This document shows, in pieces, positions 7,701 to 60,310 of a stretch of 64,000 bases of DNA. Made by a program: the position numbers and the translations under genes. The notes under the pieces were generated by a model that did no database searches, was not told the DNA's origin, and saw only the letters and a list, made by a program, of their open reading frames with translations. Position 1 is the stretch's first letter. Each line of letters begins with the position of its first letter. Source of the DNA: Candidatus Campbellbacteria bacterium GW2011_OD1_34_28 (GTDB lineage: Bacteria > Patescibacteriota > Minisyncoccia > Phycocordibacterales > UBA12079); contig CP011215.1 of the NCBI GenBank assembly GCA_001029775.1, forward strand, positions 426,303 through 490,302, written 5' to 3'.

Positions 7701-10700
7701 GTAACCAGTATGTATGGTGTTTATACCGCTGATCCAGTAGGAGCAGGCACAGTAACTAATAATTATGGTTTGTTTGTCCCTCAATTAAGCAAAGGAGCAA
7801 CAAAAAATTATGCTATATATACAGCAGGGACCACACGATCTTATTTTGGTGGAATAATAAATAATAGTGCAGGAATCTTGATAGCACCAAACGATGCTAC
7901 AACAAATCCAGCAAAATTATTTGAAATTCAAACAACATCTGGGACAGAAGCGTCTTTAAGAATAAGACAGCTTTCACAAAATTATTGGGATCTTAAATCT
8001 CCAGCAGGGTCAACTCGTTTTGACATATCAGATGTTTCTGGCACATATTTTTCTATATTGAATGGGGGAAACACCGGTTTGGGAATAACAACACCAACAG
8101 GAAAGTTAGAGATTGCTCAAGCTGGGTCAGATACTATAGCAAGTAGAAACCATTTAATATTCGGAGGATCGGAGGGTACGGATTATTTTGGCATGGGTTT
8201 AGATGCTACTGGTGATTTGATGATTGATAATTTAAATGGAACCGATACTAATGTAATGTCGTTATTGAGTTCTGGCAACGTCGGGATTGGGACGGTTAGT
8301 CCGGGGGCGAAGTTGGATGTTGCAACTGCAATAAATACTGGCAGTTTAACATTAGGAGTTGTCCCCTATACCGGTACTGACAGATATGTTGTTTTGAATA
8401 GTAATGGAATTGCTCTAAAGAACAGTATTACATATGGATGGGGGTCTGGATCAACAGATGCTGGAGGAACAAAGGATACTCAATTTTCACGTCTTTCAGC
8501 TGGAAAGATAAGTGTTGATACTGGCACAGTTGGCAATTCTTTAGGTACTCTTATCGCTGGCAACGTCGGCATCGGAACGACGAGTCCGGCTGCGGCTTTG
8601 GAAGTTCAGGGTAATGTTATCTTTAACGACCGCCTGACAATGAATGGTGATTCGGTTGGTTTATCTGCTAATAACTCAAACTACAATACTATTAAAAGTT
8701 TGTTCAGACCTACTTCAAATGGATTAAATTTAACAGGGGCTTTGGTAGATGCAAATTTTGATAACAACTCAGCAAACCTTACAAATGCCTATGGGTTAAG
8801 GATAACAAACGCCATTTCAGGAACTTATACAACAACAAACGCATATGGGCTTTATGTTGAGCAGCCGACAGGGGCAACGAATAATTATGGGGCATATATA
8901 AACGGCAATGTCGGCATTGGTACCACAACACCTTTCAGAAAGTTGAGTGTAGAAGGTAGTGTGTGGATCAGTGGTGATTTAACCGCTAACTCAATTACTG
9001 CCACAAGTTCAATTTCTGCTCCTTACTTTACAGCGACAGACACCACAGCAACTTCTACTTTTGCTGGTGGTTTAACCGTGGGAACAAATAAATTGGTGGT
9101 GGATAGGAGTACGGGAAATGTCGGCATCGGGACGACAGCATCGGACAGGGCGTTACATATTTCTACTAACTCTACAAACTATCAATTAAGACTTGAACGA
9201 ACTGGGACAACAGCTGGTGCTTCTACCTTATATGCAAACTCATCTTTTGCGCTTGGAATTACGGCAGGTAGCGGAACTGGTACAGGAGTATTTACTCTTG
9301 GACAAACGGGCGGTCTTTCTTTGGGAACATATTATGGAACAAACCCCGGAGCGGGAAGCCTAATACTTCCCGGCAACGTCGGGATTGGAACAACCACACC
9401 ATTTAGAAAGTTGAGTGTAGAAGGTGGTGCGTGGATATCTGGTGATTTAACCGTATCAAATATAACAGCCACATCATCTGTCTATTTATCAAACACCACA
9501 TATGCCGACCAGTCAGGTATTATCTACAAAGGAGCCAATTCTTTTATCCACAATTTCAATTATGGGAACAATGGAACAGTGACGACATTGGGACAAAATA
9601 CTTTTGTCGGAGAATTGGCCGGAAACTTTACAATGGGAAGCACGGCAACAGAGACTTACCATGCAAGTAGAAATACAGCAATAGGTTATCAATCCTTACT
9701 CGCCAACACAACAGGATATTATAACACTGCTAATGGTTATCAAACTTTGCGATTAAACACCACAGGAGGCTACAATACCGCTAATGGTTTGCAATCTTTA
9801 TATTCCAACACCACGGGCAATTACAATACTACTAATGGTGCAAATTCTCTCTATCTTAACACCACAGGCTCTTCTAATGTTGCCGACGGCCATTCTGCTG
9901 GTACTTACATCACCGACGGCGTAACAGCCAACACCACGGGAGACTACAATATCTTTATCGGACGAGACACTAAAGCCCTTGCCGACAACGACCAAAATGA
10001 AATCGTTATCGGCTACAACGCCACAGGGGTAGGAAGCAACTCGGTTGTTTTGGGGAATGATAGTATCACAAAAACGATTTTGAAGGGGAATGTCGGCATC
10101 GGCACCACCTCACCTTTTGCAAAACTTTCAGTAACAGGAGCTGGAACAGGCACTGGCTTGGCTTTTCAAGTTGCAAACTCTGCCAATTCTCCAAAATTTA
10201 CTGTTTTGGATAGTGGAAATGTGGGCATTGGGACGATGGGTCCGGAAGGATTATTGCATATCCATTCTACTAGCGCAGGGGATGTTGTTGCACACGCTTC
10301 TTATAATGATTTTGTGATTGAGGGAGGATCAACTGTAGGTATGAATATTCTTTCCGCGGACGTGGGCCTTTCAGGTCTTGGATTTGGCACGCCGTCAGAT
10401 AATTTAGGTAGCTATCTTCAGTGGGATTTTACGAATAATTTAATGTCCGTTGGAACCGCAAGAACAGGCGGAAATCTTAGATTAGTTACTGGAAATAATG
10501 TGGAGCAGATACGAATACAATCAAACGGCAACGTCGGCATCGGAACAACCACACCTTCCGCAAATTTGGATATTTACTCTAACGTAGACTCTAATTCTCG
10601 ACTGAACATTGATTTGGGGGCTGCTTCTTCGAACATTGGTATTAATCTTATATCGTCATCTATCTCCAGCGGTTCATATTGGATAAAAACAACAGGAAAC

Positions 10701-13700
10701 GATAATGAAGATAGTTTTGTTGTTAGAGGAGATGGGGCTGTCGGAATCGGAACAACAACTCCTTCTGCAAAACTCGATATCTATCAAGGTAATTTGAATT
10801 TGGACAACACCACTTTCGCCAACCAATTTGGAGTGATTTCCAAGGGCGGAACAAGGTTTATCCATAATTTCAACTACGGAAACAACGGAACGGTGACGAC
10901 AGTAGGATACAATACTTTCATTGGAGAAAACGCGGGAAACTTGACGATGGGAAGTACGGCGACTTCGGCTAGTCATGCAAGCTACAATACAGGAGTGGGC
11001 TATCAGTCCTTGCAGGCAAACACCACAGGCTATTTCAACACCGCTATTGGTAATCAATCTTTATTATTAAATACCACAGGTTATCACAACACCGCTATTG
11101 GTAATCAATCTTTGCGTGGTAATACCACAGGTAGTTCTAATACCGCTAATGGTTATCAGTCTTTATATTCCAATACAACAGGAGGATTTAATGCTGCCAT
11201 TGGTTATCAATCTTTACGTTCCAACACAACAGGTGGCTATAATATCGCTTTTGGTTATAACGCTGGTCGCTATATTACAGACGGCGTAACAGAAAACACC
11301 ACAGGAGACTACAATATCTTTATCGGACAAGATACCAAAGCCCTTGCCGACGACGACCAAAACGAAATCGTCATCGGCTACAATGCCACAGGGGTAGGAA
11401 GCAACTCGGTTGTTTTGGGTGCCGATACAATCACAAAAACAATTTTGAAGGGGAATGTTGGCATCGGCACCACCTCACCTTTTGCAAAATTATCAGTAAC
11501 AGGAACCGGAACAGGAACTGGCTTGGCTTTTCAAGTTGCCGATTCTGCCAACTCACCAAAATTCACTGTTTTGGATAATGGAAATGTCGGCATTGGGACG
11601 ACGGCGCCAAGCCAGATTTTACATACTTTCAGAAATGATTCAAATACTACAAATAGTATTGAAATTGAGCAAGATGGCTCGGGAGATTCTTCATTAAGAT
11701 TTTTATTAACAGGAGTTACTGGATGGACAATGGGTGTAGATAATTCTGATTCAGATAAATTTAAGATAGGAAATGCACAGTCATTTTCTACAAGTTTTTT
11801 AAACATAGATGGCGCTGGCAACGTCGGTATAGGAACGGCAAATCCAGGGGCGGAACTTGAGATACAAGCAGACGCAAATACAGGCGGAGCTCCTCAATAT
11901 TCACAATTTTGGATTTCTGGAAAGACAGTTAATACAAAACGATTTTATATTGGTATGGATACGAGCACAAATAAAGGTATTCTTTCCGCAGAAACTGGTG
12001 CTGGGGTTTATGCACCTATTGTTATAAATCCATATGGTGGCAATGTTGGCATCGGCACCACAACACCAGGGGCGAAGTTAGATATTAATGGAAATATGAG
12101 AACCTCCATTGGTTCAGGTGGATTTTTGACATTACATGAGACTGATGCTACAAGACAAAATCAGTTGAGTCTGGGAGCTGACGCAAGCGGTGCGTATTTA
12201 GCTTCAACTTATGCGACTGGAGGAGTTGCAGATATTCGTTTTAGTTTAGCAGGTACAGAAAGGGTGCGCATTCAACAGGGTGGTAACGTCGGCATCGGCA
12301 CCACCTCACCTTTTGCAAAATTATCCGTCAAAGGAGCAGGAACAACCACAGGTGTAAACTTCCAAACAACCAATTCGGCTGACACTCCGTTGGTGACTGT
12401 TTTGGATAGTGGGAAGGTGGGTATTGGGACGACGAATCCTGGTACATTATTACAATTAAATATTGATGGTATAGCTAATACACCAAAGGAAGTATTAAGA
12501 GTGTTTAATGGGCTTGCTTATGGTGTTGGTAATGGTTATGGTGAGGCCCAAATAGGCATCGGACACGCTGTATCGGGTGGATATGTCGGTGGTGGAGCTA
12601 CTTCTGAAACTTCAAGTACTAATGGATATCTATCTTTAGGAAATAGGGTATCTAATGTAATGACAGAAGTAGTTAGAATTACTGATGGCAACGTCGGCAT
12701 CGGGACGACGAGTCCGGGAGCAAAGTTAGTTGTAGTGGGAAATGGTACCGCAAGCGTGGCTATAGGGGGTGGAGCATATACAGACTATTCATCTATATCC
12801 TTGAATGGGAGCCTTGCTTCTGGTCAATACAATCTTTTAAGTGGTTATGCTGACAAGACGCTCTATATTAATCGTCCAGCCGGTGCAGATATTTTATTTA
12901 GGGAAAATAATGGTACTGCACAGATGGTCATAAAACAGACAACCGGCAATATCGGCATCGGCACCACATCACCTTTTGCAAAACTATCCATCAAAGGAGC
13001 AGGAACAACCACAGGTGTAAACTTCCAAACAACCAATTCGGCTGATACTCCGCTGGTGACTGTTTTGGATAGTGGGAATGTCGGTATTGGGACGGTGAGT
13101 CCAGGGGCAATGTTGACTATTGTAGGCACTCCTGCTGGAGGTTCCACGAATGTTGGGTTAAATATATATGACAACACGGGGAATGGTGTCGGAATATGGA
13201 CATCAAACGCAGTTGGAAAAATTGGAACACCGAATGCTGTTGATGTTGCATTTATGGCAAACAATAGTGAGAAAATGAGGATATTACAATCGAACGGCAA
13301 CGTCGGCATCGGGACGACGAGTCCAGGAAGTTTGTTGCATTTATATCAAAATACAGTAGGAGTTGGGACTGGTAATGGATTAATGATTGAACAGGATGGA
13401 GCAGGCGACGCTTTAATGCAGTTTTTATTAACGGGGACAGCTAGATGGCAAATGGGCGTTGATAATAGCGATTCTAGAACATTCAAAATTGGAGTTGGTA
13501 GCGATTGGGCAACAAATATTGGCTTGGCAATTACAACTACAGGCAACGTCGGCATCGGCTCAACCGCTCCAAACTACAAACTAACCGTAAACGGAACAGT
13601 AGCTTTCCAAAGTCTTGCTAACAACGGCACTGGCTATTATGTCTGTGCCAACGCTGGAACAGGAGAACTAGCCACATCAACAACAGCCTGCGGAGCATCA

Positions 13701-14624
13701 TCAGAAAGATTTAAAACAAATATAAACGATCTAACATACGGTCTAGACACAGTCCTTCAACTACGCCCTGTATCTTTCAATTGGAAATCAGACTTTATCA
13801 ATTCTTCTTCAACTCAAATCGGATTCATCGCAGAAGAAGTAAACTCTCTTATACCAGAAGTAATCGGACACGATGACAAAGGTACTATCATGAACCTTGA
13901 TTATCCAAAGTTGACTTCGGTTTTGGTAAATGCAGTTAAGGAACTTAATCTAAAAATAGAAAGTATTGCAAGTACAACAAGCCAGTTGATAGCCGACAGC
14001 TCACAACCAACATCTGTTATTGATTCTGTTCTTTCTCATTTAGAAAGTTTGGGTGCTAAGTTTGTTGATGGAATCGCTTATTTAAAAACAGTTTTCGTTG
14101 AAAATCTAACTATTGGTAGTGCGGACAAGCCGACTGGTATGACTTTGTACGACAAAGCAACAGGGGAGCCTTATTGTTTGGAAATTGTTAATGGAGCGAT
14201 GGTAAATACTTCTGGAATTTGTGATACAGCTAATAGCCAGCAGCCAACAGCTGACAGCACGAACTACACCGCACCAGTTATAACAATCACAGGCAACAAC
14301 CCAGCCGTAGTAGAAATAAACAGCAACTATATTGATCTAGGCGCTACAGCAGTAGATAACCAAGGAAACTCTCTAATCGTAGATATAATAGACGCAGATA
14401 CAGTAGACACAACAACAGCCGGAGAATACACAGTTACTTACACAGCATTTGATGGAACACTAACTTCAACAAGTACGAGAACAGTACTTGTTGAAGATCC
14501 GACCCCGTTAGAGACCACGACTGTCTCTGACAGTCTGCCTCTAACGGGGCAAGTAGCTGACAGTCAACAGACAGCGACAACAACAGAGCCGACAACAACG
14601 GAGACGATAGTCGATAGTTTATAG
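4722..14624 (+). CDS. Giant (3300 aa) membrane-anchored repetitive fibre protein: N-terminal cytoplasmic segment + single TM, ~24 GNVGIGTTSPxxKLSV modules, Hep_Hag-like NTAxGxxSL repeats, S74-type intramolecular chaperone domain (SERFKTNI...), C-terminal Ig-like domain
   Basis: Single uninterrupted ORF; TM helix ALSTAVLAILLIGAGYF near residue 75; periodic motif counted in translation; SERFK autoproteolysis motif at nt ~13690-13960; extended -10 TGGTATAAT at ~4699-4707 upstream. Confidence 0.85.
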   Translation: MQSEIFLNGKRYLSTKKATKITELDEEHIKDLCREEKIDFTKVEGEYFVELEKLFEYKNKTNKPMILPIRALSTAVLAILLIGAGYFSGDILNQLNKTGEAVFSAVKNTKEITYKVGAEKRDLFKTQILDSNDNSPIKEIKDSKNVKTVDTYTQDFLDYLDGLKNRIVSVTADSLQLIADSTNEDEVEKTVDSRQSIVDSTDGVNILAGQVDHLTSFAKTGVNNLALVVYETASPVEQFAVGWYKFVNNLFSNEADSLQPTADSVDEADSGQLTTNSANEDDSSVFASDSEADRDEISENVPSVPATPKTTTIVTNPIREIIKETVVERVIQTSGVTLEDFQKLNNELRSEIYKLSSATNSQITNTYQVISATNNIDNLGSVTITDSNISSSNVSGTELSFTNGTIQNLTVTGTATSTYGGPISATSGTYSGNLTVTGNTTLNTLTVSGDTIFDTDTLYIDSINNRVGIGSTTPSDTLSVNGATYLAPISAPSITTDRLYNISNDLYWGGNLLAGSAVGNWTSNGTDVWRASGNVGIGTTSPSYKLSVDGFVDASGTTGGYKIDGNTILQASSTNYTTLVGQGAGSSLTSAIRTTAIGYGALASTTSGNNNTAVGYNALNLNSTGILNTAIGSLALSVNTTGDRNTATGALALYSNTTGSYNTGTGAYSLNLNTTGANNSAHGRSAMYSNTTGTYNTADGMQALFSNTTGNNNTASGYSSAYSNSTGGSNVTIGYGASYRNSTGSYNTAIGQDAGFGVAGNSYSNNSFFGYRSGYGITVGSNNLLLGYQAGDNVTTGSNNLVIGYDIDAPSATASNQLNIGNLIYGTNINGTGTTLSSGNIGIGTTSPFAKLSVKGAGTTTGINFQTTNSADTPLVTVLDSGNVGIGTSNPSTDLHVGNSNINNSVDSVILVSRLVDNSGVGSGVNGHAFSDSSTITRSGSIGYNSFDGRTIFSGSNDYNHYAVFQNGTTYSSSGTMGIMYGFVNVPTVTAGTVTSMYGVYTADPVGAGTVTNNYGLFVPQLSKGATKNYAIYTAGTTRSYFGGIINNSAGILIAPNDATTNPAKLFEIQTTSGTEASLRIRQLSQNYWDLKSPAGSTRFDISDVSGTYFSILNGGNTGLGITTPTGKLEIAQAGSDTIASRNHLIFGGSEGTDYFGMGLDATGDLMIDNLNGTDTNVMSLLSSGNVGIGTVSPGAKLDVATAINTGSLTLGVVPYTGTDRYVVLNSNGIALKNSITYGWGSGSTDAGGTKDTQFSRLSAGKISVDTGTVGNSLGTLIAGNVGIGTTSPAAALEVQGNVIFNDRLTMNGDSVGLSANNSNYNTIKSLFRPTSNGLNLTGALVDANFDNNSANLTNAYGLRITNAISGTYTTTNAYGLYVEQPTGATNNYGAYINGNVGIGTTTPFRKLSVEGSVWISGDLTANSITATSSISAPYFTATDTTATSTFAGGLTVGTNKLVVDRSTGNVGIGTTASDRALHISTNSTNYQLRLERTGTTAGASTLYANSSFALGITAGSGTGTGVFTLGQTGGLSLGTYYGTNPGAGSLILPGNVGIGTTTPFRKLSVEGGAWISGDLTVSNITATSSVYLSNTTYADQSGIIYKGANSFIHNFNYGNNGTVTTLGQNTFVGELAGNFTMGSTATETYHASRNTAIGYQSLLANTTGYYNTANGYQTLRLNTTGGYNTANGLQSLYSNTTGNYNTTNGANSLYLNTTGSSNVADGHSAGTYITDGVTANTTGDYNIFIGRDTKALADNDQNEIVIGYNATGVGSNSVVLGNDSITKTILKGNVGIGTTSPFAKLSVTGAGTGTGLAFQVANSANSPKFTVLDSGNVGIGTMGPEGLLHIHSTSAGDVVAHASYNDFVIEGGSTVGMNILSADVGLSGLGFGTPSDNLGSYLQWDFTNNLMSVGTARTGGNLRLVTGNNVEQIRIQSNGNVGIGTTTPSANLDIYSNVDSNSRLNIDLGAASSNIGINLISSSISSGSYWIKTTGNDNEDSFVVRGDGAVGIGTTTPSAKLDIYQGNLNLDNTTFANQFGVISKGGTRFIHNFNYGNNGTVTTVGYNTFIGENAGNLTMGSTATSASHASYNTGVGYQSLQANTTGYFNTAIGNQSLLLNTTGYHNTAIGNQSLRGNTTGSSNTANGYQSLYSNTTGGFNAAIGYQSLRSNTTGGYNIAFGYNAGRYITDGVTENTTGDYNIFIGQDTKALADDDQNEIVIGYNATGVGSNSVVLGADTITKTILKGNVGIGTTSPFAKLSVTGTGTGTGLAFQVADSANSPKFTVLDNGNVGIGTTAPSQILHTFRNDSNTTNSIEIEQDGSGDSSLRFLLTGVTGWTMGVDNSDSDKFKIGNAQSFSTSFLNIDGAGNVGIGTANPGAELEIQADANTGGAPQYSQFWISGKTVNTKRFYIGMDTSTNKGILSAETGAGVYAPIVINPYGGNVGIGTTTPGAKLDINGNMRTSIGSGGFLTLHETDATRQNQLSLGADASGAYLASTYATGGVADIRFSLAGTERVRIQQGGNVGIGTTSPFAKLSVKGAGTTTGVNFQTTNSADTPLVTVLDSGKVGIGTTNPGTLLQLNIDGIANTPKEVLRVFNGLAYGVGNGYGEAQIGIGHAVSGGYVGGGATSETSSTNGYLSLGNRVSNVMTEVVRITDGNVGIGTTSPGAKLVVVGNGTASVAIGGGAYTDYSSISLNGSLASGQYNLLSGYADKTLYINRPAGADILFRENNGTAQMVIKQTTGNIGIGTTSPFAKLSIKGAGTTTGVNFQTTNSADTPLVTVLDSGNVGIGTVSPGAMLTIVGTPAGGSTNVGLNIYDNTGNGVGIWTSNAVGKIGTPNAVDVAFMANNSEKMRILQSNGNVGIGTTSPGSLLHLYQNTVGVGTGNGLMIEQDGAGDALMQFLLTGTARWQMGVDNSDSRTFKIGVGSDWATNIGLAITTTGNVGIGSTAPNYKLTVNGTVAFQSLANNGTGYYVCANAGTGELATSTTACGASSERFKTNINDLTYGLDTVLQLRPVSFNWKSDFINSSSTQIGFIAEEVNSLIPEVIGHDDKGTIMNLDYPKLTSVLVNAVKELNLKIESIASTTSQLIADSSQPTSVIDSVLSHLESLGAKFVDGIAYLKTVFVENLTIGSADKPTGMTLYDKATGEPYCLEIVNGAMVNTSGICDTANSQQPTADSTNYTAPVITITGNNPAVVEINSNYIDLGATAVDNQGNSLIVDIIDADTVDTTTAGEYTVTYTAFDGTLTSTSTRTVLVEDPTPLETTTVSDSLPLTGQVADSQQTATTTEPTTTETIVDSL
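7241..7384 (+). repeat. ~145 bp intragenic DNA repeat (copy 1 of 3; copies at 12291..12434 and 12951..13094) encoding GIGTTSPFAKLSVKGAGTTTG(I/V)NFQTTNSADTPLVTVLDSG
   Basis: Near-identical nucleotide stretches read directly in sequence. Confidence 0.8.
9500..10215 (+). repeat. ~700 bp intragenic duplication (second copy ~10820..11595) encoding FIHNFNYGNNGTVTT...Hep_Hag repeats...GNVGIGTTSPFAKLSVTG
   Basis: Long collinear nucleotide similarity between the two segments inside the giant gene. Confidence 0.75.
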
Positions 14625-14765
14625 TCAATAGTAACGAAGACAAATGAACGACGTGGATTCCTGCCTGCCGTGTCGTTGCTTTTCTTTCAGAAAAGAGGCA
14701 GGTTTGGATATAATTTGTATTACCTGTCTGTCGGCAGGCAGGTTCGGATTATCTTTATAAAGAAA

Positions 14766-14819: not shown

Positions 14820-15030
14820 TTATTTTTTGGCCTTTTCGTTCATCATGGCAATGAATCTGGTCAGATCGAAACGGCTACAGTCGAGCTTTTCGCCGTTCTC
14901 GGAATTCATGATGGTCAATCCGCCATCAGGATTTTCTGCGATGCCAAGACAACAGTCTTTGCTACCGCAGGCGAACTCAAACTTCTTTCCGCCGATTACT
15001 TCTTTTCGTGTTTTCATGTTTTCGGGCATA
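14820..15030 (-). CDS. Small (70 aa) cysteine-containing hypothetical protein in a GC-elevated cassette with strong SD (GGAGGTGTGTT-ATG) and TTGACA-N17-TATACT promoter
   Basis: ATG at 15030..15028 preceded by GGAGGTG at optimal spacing; promoter gggaTTGACAat...TTATACT at ~15063-15095 on minus strand; terminator downstream; the ORF track's TTG-extended version 14820..15071 is probably too long. Confidence 0.6.
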
Positions 15031-15173: not shown

Positions 15174-16571
15174 TTATCCGTTTTTAATGATAGTTATAAA
15201 TTTCTTTATAATATTATTATCTCTTGTTTTTTCGTTGATGCTTCCTGCGGGATTAACATTTACGATTATTGCCATATCTGTTCCTGCTTTTGCTCTATCA
15301 AAGCCGAGCATATATTCTATTCTTTCTCCGGGTCTGATCATTCCTTGAGTGTTTGAGTGATAAATATATATAGGATCGGTAGGGAGAACGATATTAAATG
15401 TCCATCCGTCAGCTGTCTTTGTTCCAATGTTTGAAATAATAAATCTAAACGCAACTTTGCTAGATGTATTTGGAGTAGATGAAGCCACAAATTTGTTTGT
15501 GTTCGGATCAATTATTCCTACTTCAATTATTTCTGCTGTTAAGTCTGCCTGACCATATGGGTTTGAAACACCAATTGTTGAACCACCGCTAATAGGAATT
15601 ATTTGAGTTGTTGTTTGTCCTGGATTAAGAATTGTTGTTGTGTTTCCTGTGTTTGTATTACTGTTTGTATTATTTGTGTTTGTTGTGTTGCCTGAGATAG
15701 TATCACTGTCAGAATTGTCTACTATTCCTGATATTGGATAGCTTGTTACAAAGTCAGCCTCTACTATATGTCTGTCTTCTTTTGCTCCCAATGTATTACA
15801 TGTTGAGATTGTAAGAGTTCTTTTTCCTGTATTAAATTTAACCACAGCGTCGCTATCTCTTTCTGTTCTTACAGAAGTTACCTTGTAAAGGTGTTCCTTG
15901 TTTTCAGAACGAACTTTAATAGTATCTCCGACTTCAAGTTTTTCAAGATTGTTCAATGCTTTATAGGCTTGATTTCTCACTACTTGATAGCTGGTGCTAT
16001 GTCCAAAAAGATAAATGTTGTCTTCTTGCCCCAAAAGTCCTGATTTTGGATATCTAACAACTCCGTATTTCAAAGCCTCATCTAGTGCTGACAAATCGGA
16101 TGAAGTAGGATTAAGCACAGCTGAATCAACATTTATTTTATCGATAACAATTCTAATAGGATTAGCTACTTCTTCTGTAACATCTACAATTCCTCCTTCA
16201 GGAATTCTTTTGCTATAGAAAAGTTCTGCTACAGCCGATAGGTTTTCTGAAATAAAGTTTGCACTGCTACTAATTACTGAACCAAAAAATGTTCCAACCT
16301 TTGATAGAGAAGGGAAGTAAGTAGGAAATTTTTCTGCTCCTTCTCCTGCAACTTCAGTTGTGTTTTTTACATTGTTTACAATCCTTGGTGCAGCAACAAC
16401 TAAAATAATTAACACGATCAATACTTTCAATGCAGTCTTAAAACCTTTTTTAGGCACTTTGAAAGAGACATCGTAGTTGTCATCTCGTCTTCTCAACTCA
16501 CCTTCGTAAGGCAAATTGTCAGGTGCTCCTGAATCGTTATCGTTTATTCTTTTGTTTAGTGGATTCATCAT
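15174..16571 (-). CDS. Sortase-family transpeptidase (class uncertain) with N-terminal TM anchor and C-terminal CARDB-like beta domain
   Basis: Catalytic triad context LFGHSTS (His), LTISTCNTLG (TLxTC Cys), downstream Arg; N-terminal hydrophobic helix ALKVLIVLIILVVAAP. Confidence 0.8.
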   Translation of the reverse strand: MMNPLNKRINDNDSGAPDNLPYEGELRRRDDNYDVSFKVPKKGFKTALKVLIVLIILVVAAPRIVNNVKNTTEVAGEGAEKFPTYFPSLSKVGTFFGSVISSSANFISENLSAVAELFYSKRIPEGGIVDVTEEVANPIRIVIDKINVDSAVLNPTSSDLSALDEALKYGVVRYPKSGLLGQEDNIYLFGHSTSYQVVRNQAYKALNNLEKLEVGDTIKVRSENKEHLYKVTSVRTERDSDAVVKFNTGKRTLTISTCNTLGAKEDRHIVEADFVTSYPISGIVDNSDSDTISGNTTNTNNTNSNTNTGNTTTILNPGQTTTQIIPISGGSTIGVSNPYGQADLTAEIIEVGIIDPNTNKFVASSTPNTSSKVAFRFIISNIGTKTADGWTFNIVLPTDPIYIYHSNTQGMIRPGERIEYMLGFDRAKAGTDMAIIVNVNPAGSINEKTRDNNIIKKFITIIKNG

Positions 16572-16732: not shown

Positions 16733-19024
16733 ATGACAAAGAATATAACAAAAAGCTTAATAATATTTCTGGCAATTTTTTCCGCGTTTTCTTTTGGTTT
16801 GATTCCAGTAGATATTCAAGCTGCTACTACTCAAATAAATTTTAATGATGAGATTATGTTTGCTCCGAACTGTTTTTGCGGAGCTGATGTAACAGCATAC
16901 AATCTTTACCCCTGTGAAGATCGTAATTGGTGTAACGGTGATACCTCAATAAAGACAGCCAATGTTTCTAATGGAAAATACAAAGTAAAAGTAAATATAG
17001 CTAAATTAACTGATGGACAAAGATTTGAATCGGTGATTTTTACATTTAATGGAGTAAATTATACTATTCCCGATCTTGGAGGAAATGCAGACTCGACTGG
17101 TACGGGGGTATATGAAGTTGGAACATTTAATTTGTCAGGACCAGTTAGTTTTAAAGGAACTCACAAATATGCCAATACTTTTACAGGTCTTTGGTACTCA
17201 GATCCTTATTCAAAAGTAGGTTCTGGTCACGCAATGGAAAGTGTTTCTATTGCCTCTGTTGTTCTTGAAGAAATTGTTACCCCACCTACTTGTACAATGA
17301 GTGCGGTTCCTTCAACAATAACTGCTGGAAATACATCAAATTTGAGATGGACTTCTACAAACGCAACTAGCGCTGTTATCAATCAAGGAATTGGAAATGT
17401 AGCCGTTAATGGAAATAGAAATGTTTCTCCATTCCAAACAACGACTTACACAGGAACATTTACGGGCCCTGGTGGAACAGTAAATTGTCAAACAACCGTG
17501 ACTGTTACAATACCCCAAATGCCTACTTGTACAATGACAGTTAATCCTGCAAATATTACAACTGGACAAAGTGCAACTTTGAGTTGGACTTCTGTAAACG
17601 CAACTAGCGCTGTTATCAATCAAGGAATTGGAAATGTAGCCGTTAATGGAAGCAGATCTGTTTCACCAACTCAAACAACAACTTATACGGGAACATTTAC
17701 TGGTGCTGGTGGAGTAGTAACTTGTCAAAAAACTTTGACTGTTAACAATGTTCCACCACCTCAATTGCCGACTTGTGCAATGAGTGCTGTTCCTCAAACA
17801 ATCTCTGTTGGAGACACATCAAATTTGAGATGGACATCTACAGGCGCAACCAGTGCTGTTATAAACCAAGGAATTGGCACAGTAGCAGTTGATGGAAATA
17901 GAAATGTTTCACCTACTCAAACCACAACATATACAGGAACCTTTACAGGTTCTGGAGGAAGCGTAGTTTGCCAGACAACAATTATTGTTACATCTACACA
18001 CCCTGCGCCAACTTGTACAATGACAGTTACACCAGACAGTATTGTTAACGGAGGAAATGCTACTCTAGCTTGGAATTCTACAAATGCTACATCTGCTTCT
18101 ATAAATCAAGGTATCGGAACTGTGGCTGTTGATGGAAGTCGTGTTGTTTCTCCAAATCAGACCACAACATATACAGGAACATTTACAGGTTCTGGAGGTG
18201 TTGTTACTTGTAGTGCTATGTTGACTGTTTCTGGAACAGGAGGTCCTTCTATAAATATAACAAAAAATGACAATGACAATGGTGATGATACTCAGGCCGT
18301 TGTGTCTGGGGGGACAGCAACCTTTACAGTCGTTGTGACAAATAATGGAACAAGAGATCTTATTGACGTTGTTGTAACAGATGCTTTGGCACCAAATTGT
18401 AACAGAACAGAAAGTCAAACAGCAGGTCTTTATCCGGGGTTAGTATTTGATCCAGGAGAAAGTTTTACTTATACATGTACTGACACAGATATTACATCAG
18501 CTTATACAAATACAATTAGAGTTGATGCTGATGAAATTGGAACATTTTCTATTGTTAATGACACAGATACCAGCAATGTTACCATAACTGGTTCAGGAAA
18601 TACTCCTACATGTTCTATGAGTTTTACACCAAGTAGCATAAATGTTGGAGACAGATCAACTCTTGCTTGGAATTCAACAAATGTTACTACGGCTGTTATT
18701 GATAACGGTGTAGGTAACGTCAATCCAAATGGTTCAACAGATATATTTAGAACATCGTCTGCAACATATACAGGAACATTTACAGGCCCAGGTGGAGTAG
18801 TGACTTGTCAGGCAAACATAACTGTTGGTGGTGGGGGAGGTGGAGGAACAAATACTCCGCGTATCACGCTATCTTCTGGTTCTGGAGTAACTGAACCCGG
18901 ATTCATTTATTTGAGCCAGATTCCTTATACAGGTATTCCTCAGTTCTTGATGACAATGATGGGATTTGTATTTAGATTCGCGTTCTTTGGAGGATTACTG
19001 TTTGCCTTATACAAAATTAAATAA
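16733..19024 (+). CDS. Secreted surface protein with six tandem Ig-like repeats (PTCTM...TYTGTFTG.GG.V.CQ) and C-terminal cell-wall sorting signal (IPYTG + hydrophobic segment + KIK)
   Basis: Signal peptide MTKNITKSLIIFLAIFSAFSF; repeats evident in translation; C-terminus LSQIPYTGIPQFLMTMMGFVFRFAFFGGLLFALYKIK has LPXTG-like architecture; TTGACA-N17-TAGTAT promoter at ~16699-16727. Confidence 0.8.
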   Translation: MTKNITKSLIIFLAIFSAFSFGLIPVDIQAATTQINFNDEIMFAPNCFCGADVTAYNLYPCEDRNWCNGDTSIKTANVSNGKYKVKVNIAKLTDGQRFESVIFTFNGVNYTIPDLGGNADSTGTGVYEVGTFNLSGPVSFKGTHKYANTFTGLWYSDPYSKVGSGHAMESVSIASVVLEEIVTPPTCTMSAVPSTITAGNTSNLRWTSTNATSAVINQGIGNVAVNGNRNVSPFQTTTYTGTFTGPGGTVNCQTTVTVTIPQMPTCTMTVNPANITTGQSATLSWTSVNATSAVINQGIGNVAVNGSRSVSPTQTTTYTGTFTGAGGVVTCQKTLTVNNVPPPQLPTCAMSAVPQTISVGDTSNLRWTSTGATSAVINQGIGTVAVDGNRNVSPTQTTTYTGTFTGSGGSVVCQTTIIVTSTHPAPTCTMTVTPDSIVNGGNATLAWNSTNATSASINQGIGTVAVDGSRVVSPNQTTTYTGTFTGSGGVVTCSAMLTVSGTGGPSINITKNDNDNGDDTQAVVSGGTATFTVVVTNNGTRDLIDVVVTDALAPNCNRTESQTAGLYPGLVFDPGESFTYTCTDTDITSAYTNTIRVDADEIGTFSIVNDTDTSNVTITGSGNTPTCSMSFTPSSINVGDRSTLAWNSTNVTTAVIDNGVGNVNPNGSTDIFRTSSATYTGTFTGPGGVVTCQANITVGGGGGGGTNTPRITLSSGSGVTEPGFIYLSQIPYTGIPQFLMTMMGFVFRFAFFGGLLFALYKIK
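17285..18240 (+). repeat. Four-five tandem ~240 bp coding repeats (Ig-like domains) inside surface protein gene; a further copy at ~18598..18840
   Basis: Repeated PTCTM(S/T)xxP...RWTSTNATSAVINQGIG...TTTYTGTFTG units. Confidence 0.75.
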
Positions 19025-19026
19025 AA

Positions 19027-19185
19027 TTTAAACAACCTTAAATTTGACGAATTTCTTCGTCAGCCTCAAGAAAAAGTCCTTCGTCGTATGTGACATACGC
19101 CTCAGGGCTTTTTCTTTTGCTTCCTCGAACCTGCCTGCCGGCAGGCAGGCTTCATTCAAATTTTAGGTTGTTTTGAAATTTTCGA
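19027..19185. mobile_element. MITE-like palindromic intergenic element, copy A (contains central CCTGCCTGCCGGCAGGCAGG palindrome)
   Basis: Terminal inverted repeats AAACAACCTTAAATTTGA / TCAAATTTTAGGTTGTTT; shares internal ATTTCTTCGTC...CTCGAAC blocks with copies at 25996, 33299, 35907, 56820. Confidence 0.65.
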
Positions 19186-19225: not shown

Positions 19226-19258
19226 AGAAAAGCCCCAACCGAAGTTGGGGCTTTTTCG
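19226..19258. terminator. Bidirectional intrinsic terminator GCCCCAAC CGAA GTTGGGGC + T5
   Basis: 8-bp GC-rich stem, T-run; 3' of minus-strand gene 19281..19625. Confidence 0.75.
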
Positions 19259-19280
19259 GATTGACCGCGGAGTCGTGCGG

Positions 19281-19625
19281 TTATCCGAGGACCGTGTAGG
19301 CGTCGATGTCGACGTTATTGGTCGAGAGAAAGTCCATGTAGTTCTGCGACAGAACGCCGGCTGCGAGGACGATGCTATCGGCCGAGCTCAGGCCGGCCGC
19401 ACACTTGTCCGGGTTGGCCGAGTTGAACGGGACCTGCTTGATCTTTCCATTGACGTTGATCAGGGCGATACCGGGCGATTTGACGTCGAGCTTGTCGCTG
19501 TGGAACACGATGGCTTTGGCCTTCGGGTTGTCCATGATACTGACCGTCTCCAGGGTTGCCGTGATTCCGAGCGCCACGATTGCCGTCATCACATTCAGGG
19601 GTTTGATCGTTTTCTTGCTGTCCAT
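19281..19625 (-). CDS. Small secreted hypothetical protein (114 aa, signal peptide) in ~58% GC cassette with SD GGAGG and gggaTTGACAat promoter
   Basis: ATG at 19625 preceded by ACGGAGGAAACGCC; hydrophobic N-terminus KPLNVMTAIVALGITATL; promoter TTGACA-N16-TAATAT at ~19690-19725 (minus); strong GC shift relative to flanks. Confidence 0.65.
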   Translation of the reverse strand: MDSKKTIKPLNVMTAIVALGITATLETVSIMDNPKAKAIVFHSDKLDVKSPGIALINVNGKIKQVPFNSANPDKCAAGLSSADSIVLAAGVLSQNYMDFLSTNNVDIDAYTVLG

Positions 19626-19735
19626 TGGCGTTTCCTCCGTAAAAAAAAGGGCTGTTTGCACTGAGAATCAAGATGACTCAAAGCACGTTGACTGACAAAC
19701 ATATTAACAGACTAAAAAATATTGTCAATCCCAAC

Positions 19736-19772
19736 ACTAAAAAAATACAGGGACTCGGTCCCTGTATTTTTG
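19736..19772. terminator. Bidirectional intrinsic terminator ACAGGGAC TCG GTCCCTGT 3' of thrS
   Basis: A-run/T-run flanked 8-bp stem. Confidence 0.7.
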
Positions 19773-25995: not shown

Positions 25996-26130
25996 TTCCA
26001 AAATTAGCACATAACTTCGTCGGTTTTGGAAAAATTTTTTTCACCGTATGTTAAATACGGCCCTGCCTGCCGGCCGGCAGGTCAAAAATTTTTTCCTCAC
26101 CTCCTCGTTCTGTATCTAATTTTGAAATCA
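25996..26130. mobile_element. MITE-like palindromic intergenic element, copy B (central CCTGCCTGCCGGCCGGCAGG palindrome)
   Basis: TIR TTCCAAAATTAG / CTAATTTTGAAA; internal ATAACTTCGTCG...CTCGTTCTGTAT blocks shared with other copies; starts 1 nt after ABC ATPase stop. Confidence 0.7.
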
Positions 26131-52831: not shown

Positions 52832-53992
52832 ATGGCAAAGTCACTGGTAGGAATTCAGACATTGGAGTCTCTCGCTGGCTGGAAAATGATCGCCGAGAGG
52901 ACTAACGAGACCGAGGAGACTGTCCAGACCGGTCAGACCAAACCCGCAGAGTTCCGGATTTATCGGAACGATGACTTGGGGGTCGAGATTCATGTCCGGC
53001 GTTCGCTGGTCAAGGAAGGACTCGATTTCCTGCCTGGGATGGTAAAGGATGTCGAGACAGGAAAAGACCTGTGGAGTTTTTTTCAGGAGCAGTCCAAAGG
53101 ACTCGGACACCTGCTCGCCATTAACGGCGAGGTGGTCATCGGCCTGGAGGAGTGGGGCGATCTGAAGAAGGTCATCCCCGTCGCCGATCTGCGCAAGCAG
53201 AAGACCGTCGTCGTTGATGGCGTGTCCAAAATTGTCGGTGGTCGTGGCGTTCTCGCTACGGTCGATCTCAAACACTCGGTTGCCGAGGCGCTTTCTACCG
53301 ATCAGGGCAGGAGCATCAAGGCCAACATCACCGACGCCGAGCGCGCGGTGATGAGAAAACTTTCTGATGCCCGCAAGGCCAGTGAGGAGCGTGAGCGATT
53401 GGCACGGGAAACCGCGCGTCGCGAGCGGATCGCCAAGATCAAGAGCCGGCAACAGATTTCCGGCATGGTCGTGGAGAACGGCAGGGGTTCGCGTTGGGCG
53501 ATTCCTGTCACAGAAGACGAATGGATGTCTTTTGGGACCGACGACGGCATGGTTGCCATCGTTGCCGGTTTCGGTGAAGACGGCAAGCCCATCGTTCCCG
53601 AAGACGGAGTGGTGGAGGCATTTTTCATTCAGTATCGCAAGGGCGGTGGTGGACGGCCGGAGAAGAAGGCACAGGTGAAAATCCGTCTTCGTGGCTACGA
53701 ACAGGCCGAGCCCGTGAAGGAAGCATCCGTCTCCGCACCGACGCTCGTCAAACTGGAAACCGTCTTTATCGAGGTTTCCAAGGATCAGGCGAAATCCCTC
53801 GGCATCGATTCCGGATTTCAGGAAGTCAGTCTTACGGATGCAGAGGGGATTTCCACTCTGCGGAAGGCAGGTCTCAACAGCGGTGCGCTCGTCGCGATCT
53901 CCGCCACCGACGGATCCGATCGGATTCAGGTGGAGAAGTTCGTTGACGGCCAGACGCAGACCTTGGGCCTCTTTAATCCGATCACGATGTGA
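52832..53992 (+). CDS. Hypothetical protein (386 aa) in ~58% GC cassette with TTGACA promoter, AGGAGGTG SD and hairpin terminator; two globular halves joined by basic coiled-coil (ERERLARETARRERIAKIKSRQQ)
   Basis: SD 52817..52824; promoter gtaTTGACAaat...TAGTAT at ~52762..52795; terminator CCCGTCGTTGC...GCAACGACGGG T6 at 54013..54062. Confidence 0.7.
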   Translation: MAKSLVGIQTLESLAGWKMIAERTNETEETVQTGQTKPAEFRIYRNDDLGVEIHVRRSLVKEGLDFLPGMVKDVETGKDLWSFFQEQSKGLGHLLAINGEVVIGLEEWGDLKKVIPVADLRKQKTVVVDGVSKIVGGRGVLATVDLKHSVAEALSTDQGRSIKANITDAERAVMRKLSDARKASEERERLARETARRERIAKIKSRQQISGMVVENGRGSRWAIPVTEDEWMSFGTDDGMVAIVAGFGEDGKPIVPEDGVVEAFFIQYRKGGGGRPEKKAQVKIRLRGYEQAEPVKEASVSAPTLVKLETVFIEVSKDQAKSLGIDSGFQEVSLTDAEGISTLRKAGLNSGALVAISATDGSDRIQVEKFVDGQTQTLGLFNPITM

Positions 53993-54146
53993 TCTGGACT
54001 AACGGCCCAAACCCGTCGTTGCATGTTGGATCCCTCCAATATTCGCAACGACGGGTTTTTTAATTGTATTGACATCTTTGTTATTTTAAATAGTATTTAG
54101 GTAGGATTTTATAGATTCTTTACTTTAATTTAAGAGGAGGTGTTAT

Positions 54147-60197: not shown

Positions 60198-60310
60198 CAA
60201 AGAGCAGATTTTGTGCGTACGCGCACAAAATCTGCTCTTTTTTGTTTGTTAAAAATACTTTAAACAAAAAAAAGTAATGTGGATAACTTGTTTTGTAATG
60301 TGTCTTCTAG

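Follow-up and report, generated by a model that had tools for sequence, protein, structure and literature searches.

A probably inherited orphan gene with GC-rich silent sites in an AT-rich Campbellbacteria genome

Main finding

A gene for a 114-amino-acid (aa) protein, located between thrS and the gene of an Ig-repeat protein, has third codon positions that are far richer in G and C than those of its host genome. It was studied within a window of 64,000 nucleotides of Candidatus Campbellbacteria bacterium GW2011_OD1_34_28 (contig CP011215.1), to which all coordinates refer. On balance, the gene is probably an inherited orphan and not a recent insertion, has no connection with a MITE located nearby, and keeps its GC-rich silent sites by a gene-specific fixation bias toward G/C, for which a cause acting at the level of the transcript is preferred.

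Transcription unit and reading frame

As judged from its sequence signals, the gene is a genuine monocistronic protein-coding transcription unit on the minus strand, with a predicted sigma-70-type promoter and a leader of about 69 nt (Table 1). A gene with a Shine-Dalgarno (SD) sequence GGAGG, a promoter with an N16 spacer and TAATAT, and a following terminator had been proposed in the first-pass annotation, and each of these elements was recovered. The ORF has orthologues and is under purifying selection, and the two hexamers of TTGACA-N16-TAATAT jointly gave 10 of 12 consensus matches. The -35 hexamer is conserved in the relative L001, where the TG-extended -10 region (GTTAATATG) is identical. 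Transcription presumably starts about 7 nt past the -10 hexamer, and the first ~20 nt of the leader are partly conserved (TG.CAGTCA..GTG.TTTG). Both the SD motif and its spacing to the start codon are the same in L001; in the relative L003 neither a clear SD sequence nor a clear promoter is evident. The stem of the terminator shows a compensatory change from A-U to G-C in L001, and the sequence of the 3' UTR is poorly conserved but GC-rich in L001 too.

A -35 context common to this gene and the small gene at 14820-15029(-) had also been pointed out. A repeat of 25 nt with 80% identity does span the -35 contexts of both genes, and exact occurrences of GGATTGACAAT are confined to these two sites. 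However, TTGACAA-type promoters were also found upstream of other monocistronic genes in the window, indicating that the shared context is a local promoter consensus and not the signature of a cassette.

Table 1. Features of the 114-aa gene and its surroundings (window coordinates)
Feature	Position	Strand	Remarks
CDS of the 114-aa protein, stop included	19281..19625	-	345 bp; ATG 19625-19623, TAA 19283-19281; GC1/2/3 0.50/0.37/0.83
Coding part of residues 1-25	19551..19625	-	Lys-rich N-terminus and 17-residue uncharged segment; putative export signal or signal anchor
-35 hexamer TTGACA	19723..19728	-	Consensus scan
-10 hexamer TAATAT	19701..19706	-	Consensus scan; TG-extended; 16-nt spacer to -35
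5' leader	19639..19694	-	Predicted from the putative transcription start
Shine-Dalgarno GGAGG	19634..19638	-	8 nt upstream of ATG; read from the sequence
3' UTR	19256..19280	-
Intrinsic terminator	19228..19255	-	12-bp stem, 4-nt loop, T-run
thrS terminator	19741..19771	-	Bounds the gene unit on its 5' side
Antisense ORF, 139 aa	19245..19664	+	Artefact of composition; gene call in ENA assemblies
Wrong-frame ORF, 98 aa, TTG start	19375..19671	-	Artefact; annotated gene in NCBI and JGI records of the strain
MITE/REP-like palindromic core CCTGCCTGCCGGCAGGCAGG	19130..19149		Outside the gene unit

Conservation with the orthologues was found only in the frame of the 114-aa protein, and protein-level homology to L003 exists there alone. 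Compared with the L001 orthologue, this frame showed a dN/dS of ~0.21 and 19, 16 and 42 differences at the first, second and third codon positions (chi-square p = 4e-4). The first-pass annotation had described the antisense frame as open. This is the case, and the open frame is a compositional by-product, because A is the last base of only 11 of 115 sense codons and most substitutions fall on antisense codon position 1. The antisense ORF (GC1/2/3 0.78/0.38/0.52), whose codon position 1 is position 3 of the 114-aa frame, is truncated in L001, and the frame of the 98-aa ORF (0.76/0.49/0.40) is not open there. Both ORFs were rejected as real genes, since they are not conserved in L001 and the substitutions hit their codon position 1. 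Public gene calls for the window strain are wrong at this gene, being either in the wrong frame or antisense. An assembly chimera was likewise rejected: at least 24 assemblies of the window strain share the same locus sequence, with no within-population variants in an exact-match check, and orthologues exist.

Base composition

The source organism is an AT-rich groundwater bacterium. The gene lies within a sharp GC island (58% GC, compared with 36% for the genome), and the abrupt jump in GC content reported previously was reproduced in two ways. In windows of 200 nt, the GC content rose from 0.34-0.37 to 0.53-0.585 across the island and returned to 0.36. A maximal-scoring-segment scan delimited the island to 19232-19639 (408 nt, GC 0.576, score 43); background segments of the window did not exceed a score of 13, and a score above 40 was reached by just two further islands of the 64 kb. 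The anomaly starts at the ribosome-binding site and stops at the terminator, with no spread or gradient into thrS or the Ig gene: the last 50 codons of thrS have a GC3 of 0.24 and the leader has 41% GC, followed at the other end of the gene by a 3' UTR with 68% GC.

Within the coding region the excess falls almost wholly on the third codon position. The GC3 of 0.83 compares with 0.19-0.35 in host genes, a CAI-like index gave 0.33 as against 0.70 +/- 0.03 for the host, and the host under-uses 91 of the 110 codons. The preferred codons (GCC, GTC, CTG/CTC, ATC, GAC) resemble those of an ordinary high-GC bacterium. Translational optimisation was rejected as the cause, as ribosomal protein genes, rpoA and dnaK of the host have a GC3 of only 0.20-0.31. 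The amino-acid composition is host-like, with 10 Lys and no Arg, a FYMINK fraction of 0.33 and a GARP fraction of 0.21. Among 429 ORFs from 80 genomes, genes with a GC3 of at least 0.7 had a GC1 of at least 0.556, a FYMINK fraction of at most 0.31 and a K/(K+R) ratio of at most 0.78, compared with 0.51, 0.33 and 1.0, respectively, for the 114-aa gene. This pattern is the reverse of that of an ameliorating foreign gene.

Substitution pattern

Substitutions were analysed at synonymous third positions against L001, the one informative genome pair (83 sites, 15 of them A/T). In the 114-aa gene, 10 of 68 G/C sites had changed to A/T (S->W) and 10 of 15 A/T sites to G/C (W->S), giving a piS of 0.82 (bootstrap 0.71-0.91) and a lambda*t of 1.68. 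The corresponding counts in the flanking genes (thrS, sortase and Ig gene) were 163/270 and 197/995, with a piS of 0.25 and a lambda*t of 1.62. Both differences were significant by Fisher's test (S->W p = 5e-12; W->S p = 1.2e-4). Under the flank process, 30 of the 83 sites would be expected to be G/C in L001, versus 68 observed, and the GC3 of the L001 orthologue is 0.82. The gene had a pS of 0.48, compared with 0.60-0.64 in the flanks, and a dN of 0.165. Equal synonymous turnover at an equilibrium GC3 of ~0.82, as against ~0.25, points to a gene-specific fixation bias toward G/C.

Similar behaviour was seen in two further GC-rich orphans of the window. These genes, at 52832-53992 (386 aa) and 59133-60197 (354 aa), are syntenic in the relative L090, each has its own TTGACA promoter and SD sequence, and their piS values were 0.59 and 0.51, respectively, compared with 0.23 in their flanks.

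Relatives and genomic setting

The order thrS, 114-aa gene, Ig-repeat sortase substrate and sortase is the same in L001/L002 and in L003, with ThrS proteins sharing 88% and 72% aa identity, respectively, with that of the window strain. The 114-aa protein is 78% identical to its orthologue in L001 and 41% identical to that in L003. Homology searches aimed beyond these relatives returned nothing further: exhaustive phmmer and profile searches recovered no real relatives apart from the syntenic orthologues P0001 and P0006, and no other homologue was found among ~15 billion proteins, in 1.84 billion cluster representatives, or in plasmids, phages and viral contigs. Metagenome contigs contained no homologue beyond the L001 type and none in a non-syntenic context. 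Neither the gene nor its synteny was present at 80 thrS loci among the matches listed (best thrS 64% identical, so that the nearest genomes may lie outside this set), and an exact-protein look-up of the neighbouring 133-aa protein returned the same strain only and no intermediate lineages. The 114-aa protein is restricted to a narrow Campbellbacteria-like (Paceibacterota/CPR) clade.

The first-pass annotation had placed the gene about 100 bp from the palindrome of a MITE and had implied a MITE-associated, recently acquired or mobile cassette. The distance was about right, as CCTGCCTGCCGGCAGGCAGG is separated from the terminator by 79 nt and from the stop codon by 131 nt, and the palindrome occurs three times in the window (none expected), with little shared past the 20-nt core. 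The implied insertion, however, did not hold. In both L001 and L003, the stretch from the terminator to the Ig gene contains neither the palindrome nor the sequence around it, indicating that the MITE is a later, independent insertion. At the gene no donor, tRNA, attC or, among the annotated genes, integrase was present; the tRNA scan found no tRNA gene in the whole window, and the only hairpins in the unit are terminators, with no attC-like site evident. GC1, GC2 and the amino acids are host-like, and the silent sites are at a GC-rich equilibrium. Homologues do occupy the same position in relatives, as the annotation had considered, but not at host-like composition (GC3 0.82 in L001 and 0.51 in L003). 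Recent insertion is thereby refuted, and the anomaly is still not explained by ordinary horizontal transfer.

The unit resembles integron and MITE-flanked cassettes in being a small single-ORF unit in an intergenic slot with a palindromic repeat nearby. It differs from them in its own promoter and terminator, in the lack of an evident attC, in its fixed position, in the absence of the MITE from relatives and in the lack of an integrase among the genes annotated around it. A cassette of the integron-like or MITE-linked kind was rejected, as the slot is fixed in relatives that have no MITE.

Predicted protein

The N-terminus of the 114-aa protein (MDSKKTIKP, followed by an uncharged run of 17 residues) may be an export signal, as had been suggested. 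The Lys-rich start and the hydrophobic segment make export plausible, but no canonical AXA is present, and a cleavable peptide and a signal anchor are indistinguishable here. The (-3,-1) heuristics gave several weak candidate sites (e.g. ITA|T), and the maximal mean Kyte-Doolittle hydropathy was 2.26 over 11 residues, with a 19-residue value of 1.76 that is also compatible with a signal anchor. The segment is conserved in L001 and absent in L003, whose ORF starts at the conserved domain. Like Sec-exported small proteins of monoderm bacteria, the protein begins with a Lys-rich stretch, continues with a 17-residue uncharged h-region and has small candidate residues at -3/-1, and its gene lies in a cell-surface locus; it differs from them in the missing AXA, in its modest hydrophobicity and in the absence of the segment from the most distant orthologue. 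A type IV pilin or lipoprotein was rejected, as neither the pilin motif nor a lipobox was found, and a sorting signal was likewise missing.

The conserved domain comprises about 80 residues with the motifs AIVFHS, SPG and FNSANP and a C-terminal Gly; FNSANP is invariant across the three orthologues. The protein matched no family in Pfam, NCBIfam, PHROG or PADLOC, and a PDB sequence search returned only noise (E = 0.8). Structure prediction assigned no fold: AlphaFold2 with a three-sequence alignment gave a pLDDT of 42.5 (full-length protein) or 53.7 (mature domain), and the best Foldseek match to the PDB was meaningless (E 0.92). Residues 52-90 (GIALINVNGKIKQVPFNSANPDKCAAGLSSADSIVLAAG) correspond to roughly one and a half of the 26-aa repeats G-I-[ST]-S-S-D-V-T-T-A-L-G-Y-T-P-Y-N-S-T-N-P-D-G-Y of which the phage-tail-fibre-like proteins P0002-P0004 are built. 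By sequence comparison this resemblance is at the motif level only, since the significance derives from summing 6-11 repeat matches and single matches reach only ~E 5e-5 (pairwise). Unlike these proteins, the 114-aa protein contains a single copy, shows no fibre architecture and matches no Pfam family. P0002-P0005 were rejected as relatives, being repeat proteins with scores made up of summed motif matches.

Origin of the GC-rich silent sites

The preferred explanation supposes that the 114-aa gene was passed down in place within its slot between thrS and the sortase substrate gene. The excess of G and C is found at third codon positions and in the 3' UTR, the amino acids of the protein are those typical of an AT-rich genome, and a gene-specific fixation bias toward G/C would maintain an equilibrium of ~82% GC instead of ~25%. 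Selection on the body of the transcript is the preferred cause, because the anomaly runs from the ribosome-binding site to the terminator and spares the flanking genes. The GC-rich mRNA with its rare codons might be decoded slowly, or it might be protected from RNases that prefer AU. Several observations count against this explanation. The substitution pattern derives from only 83 sites and one genome pair. The GC3 of L003 is only 0.51 and its ORF has no hydrophobic N-terminus, so neither export nor an extreme GC3 is universal, and the transcript is no more structured than dinucleotide shuffles (z = -1.07). The GC-rich 3' UTR fits nucleotide-level forces such as gene conversion or foreign origin equally well as codon-level selection, and codon choices like those of a high-GC bacterium would also be expected from foreign origin.

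An unlikely alternative is that the common ancestor of the three lineages received the gene by an ancient horizontal transfer from a donor of high GC content, after which amelioration was unusually slow and the GC content survived as a relic. This would agree with a single-gene island with sharp edges, with codon choices typical of a bacterium of ~65% GC and with the GC-rich 3' UTR. The lower GC3 of the most distant orthologue would then appear as further amelioration, and the island of the 386-aa gene (GC1/2/3 0.63/0.41/0.68) would fit a real donor of ~58% GC. However, GC1, GC2 and the amino acids of the 114-aa gene are host-like at an extreme GC3, the opposite of the order of amelioration, in which GC3 should reportedly be eroded first. 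The sites are not frozen either: turnover equals that of the flanks, and A/T third positions changed to G/C at 67%, versus 20% in the flanks. Also, no homologue exists in any GC-rich organism among the ~15 billion proteins searched, and promoter, leader and SD sequence are host-like. Like the ORFan islets of atypical GC content in the framework of Lawrence and Ochman, it is a single, sharply bounded gene with atypical GC and codons that has no detectable function and carries a promoter and a terminator of its own. It differs from such islets in being syntenic in at least three lineages (thrS down to 72%), in the restriction of the aberration to GC3, in silent sites that are at a GC-rich equilibrium and not decaying, and in the lack of a donor and of a mobility gene.

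GC-biased gene conversion is improbable to a similar degree. It would require a hotspot of exchange between strains, at which biased mismatch repair drives W->S changes at weakly constrained sites. Both the synonymous W->S fixation bias and the GC-rich untranslated 3' end are predicted by such a process, the proteins of all three GC islands evolve faster than those of their housekeeping neighbours, and a recombination-associated elevation of GC3 has reportedly been documented in bacteria. The island, however, begins at the ribosome-binding site, ends at the terminator and shows no gradient into the adjoining genes; the sortase and Ig-repeat genes next to it evolve at an even higher rate (69% aa identity) and yet have the lowest GC3 (0.19-0.23); and the assemblies of the strain, at least 24, contain no within-population variants by exact match. 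To our knowledge, the effects of gene conversion reported in bacteria are far smaller than 0.83 versus 0.25. Heterogeneity of GC3 within bacterial genomes is said to arise from gene conversion or from selection for GC. The 114-aa gene resembles these cases in its G/C fixation bias at synonymous sites against an AT-biased mutational background. It differs from them in that single genes are affected, between a ribosome-binding site and a terminator, with an amplitude of this size and with faster neighbours left unaffected.

Recurrent re-import from an unsampled GC-rich pool (plasmid, phage or host organism), with the conserved promoter and terminator serving in each lineage as arms for homologous recombination, would keep the gene from ever ameliorating, and must be considered quite improbable. 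AT-rich arms are indeed conserved around a GC-rich body, the pS of the gene (0.48) is lower than that of the flanks (0.60-0.64), and CPR bacteria are episymbionts attached to other cells. No copy was found, however, in viral contigs, phages, plasmids or a non-syntenic metagenome context, the composition of the protein is that of an AT-rich genome, and the protein has diverged no less (dN 0.165) than its neighbours. A fixation bias seems the better candidate than re-import.

Finally, it is highly improbable that the GC-rich segment is a structured non-coding RNA, or that its real product is the antisense or the wrong-frame ORF: RNA genes often form GC-rich islands in AT-rich genomes and public pipelines call both ORFs, but Rfam gave no match at the gathering score or E-value threshold beyond weak matches covering only the terminator hairpin, no RNA signal came from the tRNA scan, from folding or from two-sequence alifold (3 compensatory pairs of 84 predicted, an alignment with too little power for covariation), and substitutions gather at the third position of the 114-aa frame, i.e. 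position 1 of both alternatives.

Significance

Literature searches turned up no relevant precedent among CPR or orphan genes. Together with the genes of 386 aa and 354 aa, the 114-aa gene might conceivably represent a class of monocistronic, strongly promoted, clade-restricted orphans of Campbellbacteria-like CPR, whose silent and untranslated sites are selected to be GC-rich, but we put this forward with low confidence. If real, such a class would show in nature, one gene at a time, that base composition can be set by selection. The target of selection would be mRNA stability, decoding speed or, most speculatively, the decoding of the message in a GC-rich host cell or its delivery there.

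Gene finders trained on the host periodicity of GC1>GC2>GC3 choose the wrong frame or strand at the 114-aa gene, and the protein family is consequently missing or wrong in public records for the strain. Horizontal transfer is the routine reading of atypical GC content, yet this gene, which scores as foreign by every compositional test, appears to have been inherited in place. If this is true, one gene of 345 bp and two more within the same 64 kb would provide a compact natural system for the old question of whether selection, gene conversion or mutation sets the GC content of bacteria.

Reading frame and expression signals of the GC-rich unit

The 114-aa gene was found to be a real, monocistronic gene that is mis-annotated in public records. 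In a window of 36% GC, the values of 200-nt windows rose from 0.34-0.37 to 0.53-0.585 and returned to 0.36. Background segments scored at most 13 in a maximal-scoring-segment scan, and scores above 40 were reached, besides this island, only at 52864-54055 and 59192-60226. The GC jump, ORF, GGAGG, promoter and terminator reported in the first-pass annotation were all present, and its observation of a gene in a GC island (GC 0.576) was confirmed as a whole. As the thrS terminator sits immediately upstream, the gene constitutes a separate transcription unit. At the start of the predicted 5′ leader, about 20 nt (window 19675-19700, minus strand; 8512-8535 in L001, a locus of a relative) were kept in both lineages (TGTCAGTCAACGTGCTTTGAG vs TGACAGTCATTGTGTTTTGTG), possibly as an operator or as an element of the transcript's 5′ end; the remainder of the leader showed no conservation between the window and L001.

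A six-frame listing revealed three long overlapping ORFs in this slot. The window corresponds to contig LBQN01000002.1 of the groundwater CPR genome GCA_000990865.1, and at least 24 other assemblies carry the same genome. In the strain's records (L084-L086), NCBI and JGI call a 98-aa ORF and ENA a 139-aa antisense ORF. Both were rejected; protein homologues exist for the 114-aa frame only, and neither ORF is conserved in L001. Nucleotide differences between the 114-aa gene and its closest orthologue were distributed 19/16/42 over the codon positions (chi-square p = 4e-4), with a dN/dS of about 0.21. The GC-rich position 3 of the true frame falls at codon position 1 of both wrong ORFs, so that they imitate the GC1>GC2>GC3 periodicity of the host, which is probably why gene finders picked them. 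The antisense frame does stay open across the gene, as had been noted, only because no more than 11 of the gene's 115 sense codons end in A. No RNA gene was detected in the slot by Rfam at gathering score or by a tRNA scan, weak Rfam matches being confined to the terminator hairpin. The folding z-score of the transcript (-1.07) indicated no excess of predicted structure, and an alignment of two sequences gave no usable covariation.

Features of the GC-rich genes and of the palindromic element (window coordinates; GC123, GC by codon position 1/2/3)
Feature	Position	Strand	Remarks
GC island	19232-19639		408 nt, GC 0.576, score 43 in maximal-scoring-segment scan
114-aa ORF	19281-19625	-	
GGAGG (SD)	19638-19634	-	8 nt 5′ of ATG
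-35 TTGACA	19728-19723	-	16-nt spacer to -10
-10 TAATAT with TG extension	19706-19701	-	promoter matches 10/12 consensus positions
Intrinsic terminator	19255-19228	-	12-bp stem
thrS terminator	19771-19741	-	directly upstream of 114-aa gene
98-aa wrong-frame ORF	19375-19671	-	TTG start; GC123 0.76/0.49/0.40
139-aa antisense ORF	19245-19664	+	GC123 0.78/0.38/0.52
386-aa orphan	52832-53992	+	largest GC island of window (GC 0.57); GC123 0.63/0.41/0.68
354-aa orphan	59133-60197	+	classical signal peptide (MKKRIILLVLLGLFSVSTAMA), Pro-rich C-terminal segment; GC123 0.52/0.49/0.51
Palindrome CCTGCCTGCCGGCAGGCAGG, three copies	14723-14742, 19130-19149, 26062-26081		all intergenic; 0-2 mismatches; none expected by chance

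Orthologues and synteny

A word-indexed search of a protein database of 5.8 billion clusters yielded a single homologue, P0001 (77% identity), and P0006 (41% identity) came in addition from an exhaustive HMMER search that covered 1.84 billion cluster representatives. Four repeat proteins from the latter search were discarded, their scores being sums of motif matches. P0001 is encoded on JGI groundwater contigs (the identical loci L001 and L002, and L087-L089) and P0006 on GCA_018821685.1 (L003). The window, L001/L002 and L003 share the order thrS, 114-aa gene orthologue and a convergent gene for an Ig-repeat surface protein. The sortase gene follows the Ig-repeat gene in L001/L002; the L003 contig stops just beyond the latter. 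ThrS was 88% (L001) and 72% (L003) identical to that of the window. Neither the gene nor the synteny was found at 80 other thrS loci of species-representative genomes, with a best thrS identity of 64% among the matches listed, and the viral contigs, plasmids and phages searched contained no homologue. Given its identical slot in L001/L002 and L003 and its absence from these other sets, the gene is old within a narrow clade, with no counterpart found outside it, and synteny indicates vertical inheritance in place. Homologues of a neighbouring gene carry names pointing to Campbellbacteria/Pacebacteria.

The first-pass annotation had described a cassette beside a MITE. This reading was supported in part: the GC-rich unit with its own signals stood, but the implied mobility and the MITE link did not, the gene being syntenic in relatives that lack the MITE. 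The palindrome belongs to a REP/MITE-like element whose ends are poorly defined; outside the 20-nt core, only the 19130 and 26062 copies have further sequence in common, some 60 nt with a CGTATGT.A.ATACG hairpin. Since the orthologous intergenic regions of L001 and L003 are without the element, the copy at 19130-19149 is a later, independent insertion with no link to the gene. The promoter context GGGATTGACAAT is indeed shared with a small gene at 14820-15029, but it is not a cassette signature; TTGACAA-type promoters also precede other monocistronic genes, and the context is thus read as a local promoter consensus. The small gene (minus strand; 69 aa, Cys-containing, MPENMKTRKEVIGGKKFEFACGSKDCC...) has moderately raised GC (0.47), no family match and a 25-nt promoter context, TTTTTTT..GGGATTGACAAT, in common with the 114-aa gene; a 72-aa gene holds the matching position after the sortase in L001.

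Composition and substitution at silent sites

The GC123 of the 114-aa gene was 0.50/0.37/0.83, while ordinary window genes (n=39) had a GC3 of 0.19-0.35. Host 'optimal' codon usage was ruled out as the source, as the genes for ribosomal proteins S13, S11, S4, L17, L13 and S9, rpoA and dnaK had a GC3 of 0.20-0.31. Codon usage proved strongly atypical (CAI-like index 0.33 vs 0.70 +/- 0.03 for the host): 91 of 110 degenerate codons are under-used by the host, all ten Ile codons are ATC, and all ten Leu codons are CTC or CTG. The protein, with 10 Lys, no Arg (absent from all three orthologues), FYMINK 0.33 and GARP 0.21, looks native in composition. Among 429 reference ORFs from 80 thrS loci (GC3 0.06 to 0.84), those with GC3 >=0.7 had GC1 >=0.556, FYMINK <=0.31 and K/(K+R) <=0.78. 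Regression predicts GC1 0.64, FYMINK 0.22 and K/(K+R) 0.41 at GC3 0.83, and 0.46, 0.34 and 0.70 at GC3 0.27. Positions 1 and 2 of the gene fit the low-GC prediction and position 3 fits a genome of about 65-68% GC. Amelioration, as reportedly described by Lawrence and Ochman in 1997, wears down GC3 first and GC1/GC2 last; the pattern of this gene is the reverse. The excess is limited to silent and 3′ untranslated positions, with a GC3 of 0.24 in the last 50 codons of thrS, 41% GC in the 5′ leader and 68% GC in the 25-nt 3′ UTR.

Homologues of host-like composition in the same place had been named beforehand as evidence against a cassette. The position was the same, but the composition was not host-like: the L001 orthologue has the profile of the window gene (GC123 0.53/0.40/0.82) and that of L003 is intermediate (0.52/0.43/0.51; L003 thrS GC3 0.235).

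Third positions were compared between the window and L001 in codons with conserved amino acid and first two bases, and classed as S (G/C) or W (A/T). The 114-aa gene offered 83 sites from this one genome pair, 15 of them A/T, with changes unpolarised because L003 is too diverged: 58 S/S (seven being G<->C changes), 10 S->W, 10 W->S and 5 W/W. S->W was thus 10/68 and W->S 10/15, giving an equilibrium G/C share (piS) of 0.82 (bootstrap 0.71-0.91) and a turnover (lambda*t) of 1.68. The flanking thrS, sortase and Ig-repeat genes (1265 sites) gave 163/270, 197/995, 0.25 and 1.62 (Fisher, S->W p = 5e-12; W->S p = 1.2e-4). Observed G/C sites in L001 numbered 68/83, against 30/83 expected under the flank process. 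Silent sites have therefore turned over to the same extent as those of the neighbours, around an opposite equilibrium. This speaks against a relic whose amelioration is just slow, and equally against common ancestry that is simply more recent, since either would have kept A/T sites instead of converting them. The bias stops short of thrS and the 5′ leader, and the pattern implies that fixation would be biased towards G/C specifically in this gene.

Two further GC-rich orphan genes

The other two islands are likewise single orphan genes (386 and 354 aa), each preceded by a separate TTGACA promoter and a strong SD, and their products matched nothing in Pfam, NCBIfam, PHROG or PADLOC. Homologues of the 386-aa protein (78-97% identity) occur only in Campbellbacteria/Pacebacteria. 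Both genes are syntenic in L090, a locus of a closer relative (housekeeping proteins 94-100% identical), in the order topA, 390-aa gene, 70-aa gene, SMC-like gene, RNase R, 358-aa gene, mraZ; the 386-aa gene lies between topA and the SMC-like gene in L090 and L091 (another relative), and the 354-aa gene between RNase R and mraZ in L090. W->S rates, measured against L090, were 0.32-0.33 for the two orphans (0.33 for the 354-aa gene), while most flanking genes lay at 0.08-0.13 and the smallest at 0.02, with a pooled value of 11% (p = 7e-9 and 1e-11), and piS was 0.59 (386-aa gene), 0.51 (354-aa gene) and 0.23 (flanks). With W->S and piS raised in both, the effect is not unique to the 114-aa gene. 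Directly after the 386-aa gene lies a 71-aa gene (54147-54362, plus strand), which likewise has a TTGACA promoter, an AGGAGG and a terminator to itself; its place is taken by a conserved 70-aa gene in L090, L091 and L092.

Predicted protein and cell-surface neighbourhood

Residues 1-25 of the 114-aa protein consist of MDSKKTIKP and a 17-residue uncharged stretch (hydropathy 2.26 over 11 residues, 1.76 over 19). The earlier claim of a signal peptide holds in that an N-terminal export segment is plausible, but a canonical AXA site is absent and -3/-1 candidates are weak (e.g. ITA|T). We infer that the protein may be Sec-exported and either cleaved or N-terminally anchored. The L003 orthologue starts at the conserved domain, lacking the hydrophobic N-terminus and an obvious SD, so export would not be universal in the family. 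No lipobox, sortase sorting signal or pilin motif was found. The conserved core (residues 36-114) comprises AIVFHS, SPG, FNSANP, D83, VL.AG and a C-terminal Gly. Structure prediction was of low confidence (pLDDT 42.5 and 53.7), with Foldseek matches at noise level. Large phage-fibre-like proteins contain a 26-aa repeat that residues 52-90 resemble over one and a half copies. As the individual matches are weak, this likeness is no more than a lead.

The surrounding genes make up a cell-surface locus. A 3300-aa protein (4722-14624, plus strand) has Peptidase_S74 (endosialidase intramolecular chaperone) at around residue 3000 and, at its C-terminus, a bacterial surface Ig-like domain, an architecture similar to that of a phage tail spike. 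The sortase (15174-16571, minus strand; 465 aa, DUF11/CLIPPER-type domain) adjoins the gene for the 763-aa Ig-repeat protein (16733-19024, plus strand), which has Ig-like repeats of about 79 residues; at the DNA level, 17285-18827 contains five repeats of about 223-240 nt. At the C-terminus of this protein, LSQIPYTGIP is followed by a hydrophobic stretch and the basic tail YKIK; together they look like an LPXTG-type sortase sorting signal whose motif is IPYTG, and the ending is conserved in L003.

Origin of the GC bias

We favour selection on the transcript body as the putative cause, because the anomaly runs from RBS to terminator and leaves untouched those neighbours that evolve faster. Neither fast evolution nor surface exposure explains it by itself, as the sortase and Ig-repeat genes combine the fastest protein evolution (69% identity) with the lowest GC3 (0.19-0.23). 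A message of rare codons, decoded slowly, might suit an exported protein; alternatively, high GC might shield the message from AU-preferring RNases. Other forces may also be at work, given that predicted RNA structure shows no excess and that the 3′ UTR is GC-rich. Of three rivals, the most plausible is an ancient transfer that ameliorated slowly; the W->S flux and the native protein composition contradict it, and no donor was found. The sharp boundaries, and neighbours left unaffected, contradict GC-biased gene conversion, the second. Last comes repeated re-import from a GC-rich, unsampled pool; no trace of such a pool was seen.

The 114-aa gene is a conserved orphan in which silent sites stay GC-rich. 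It is of the same kind as intragenomic GC3 heterogeneity or an ORFan islet, differing from these in an unusually large amplitude that is confined to single genes. Recognising it amends the public records of the strain, in which the gene is mis-annotated.
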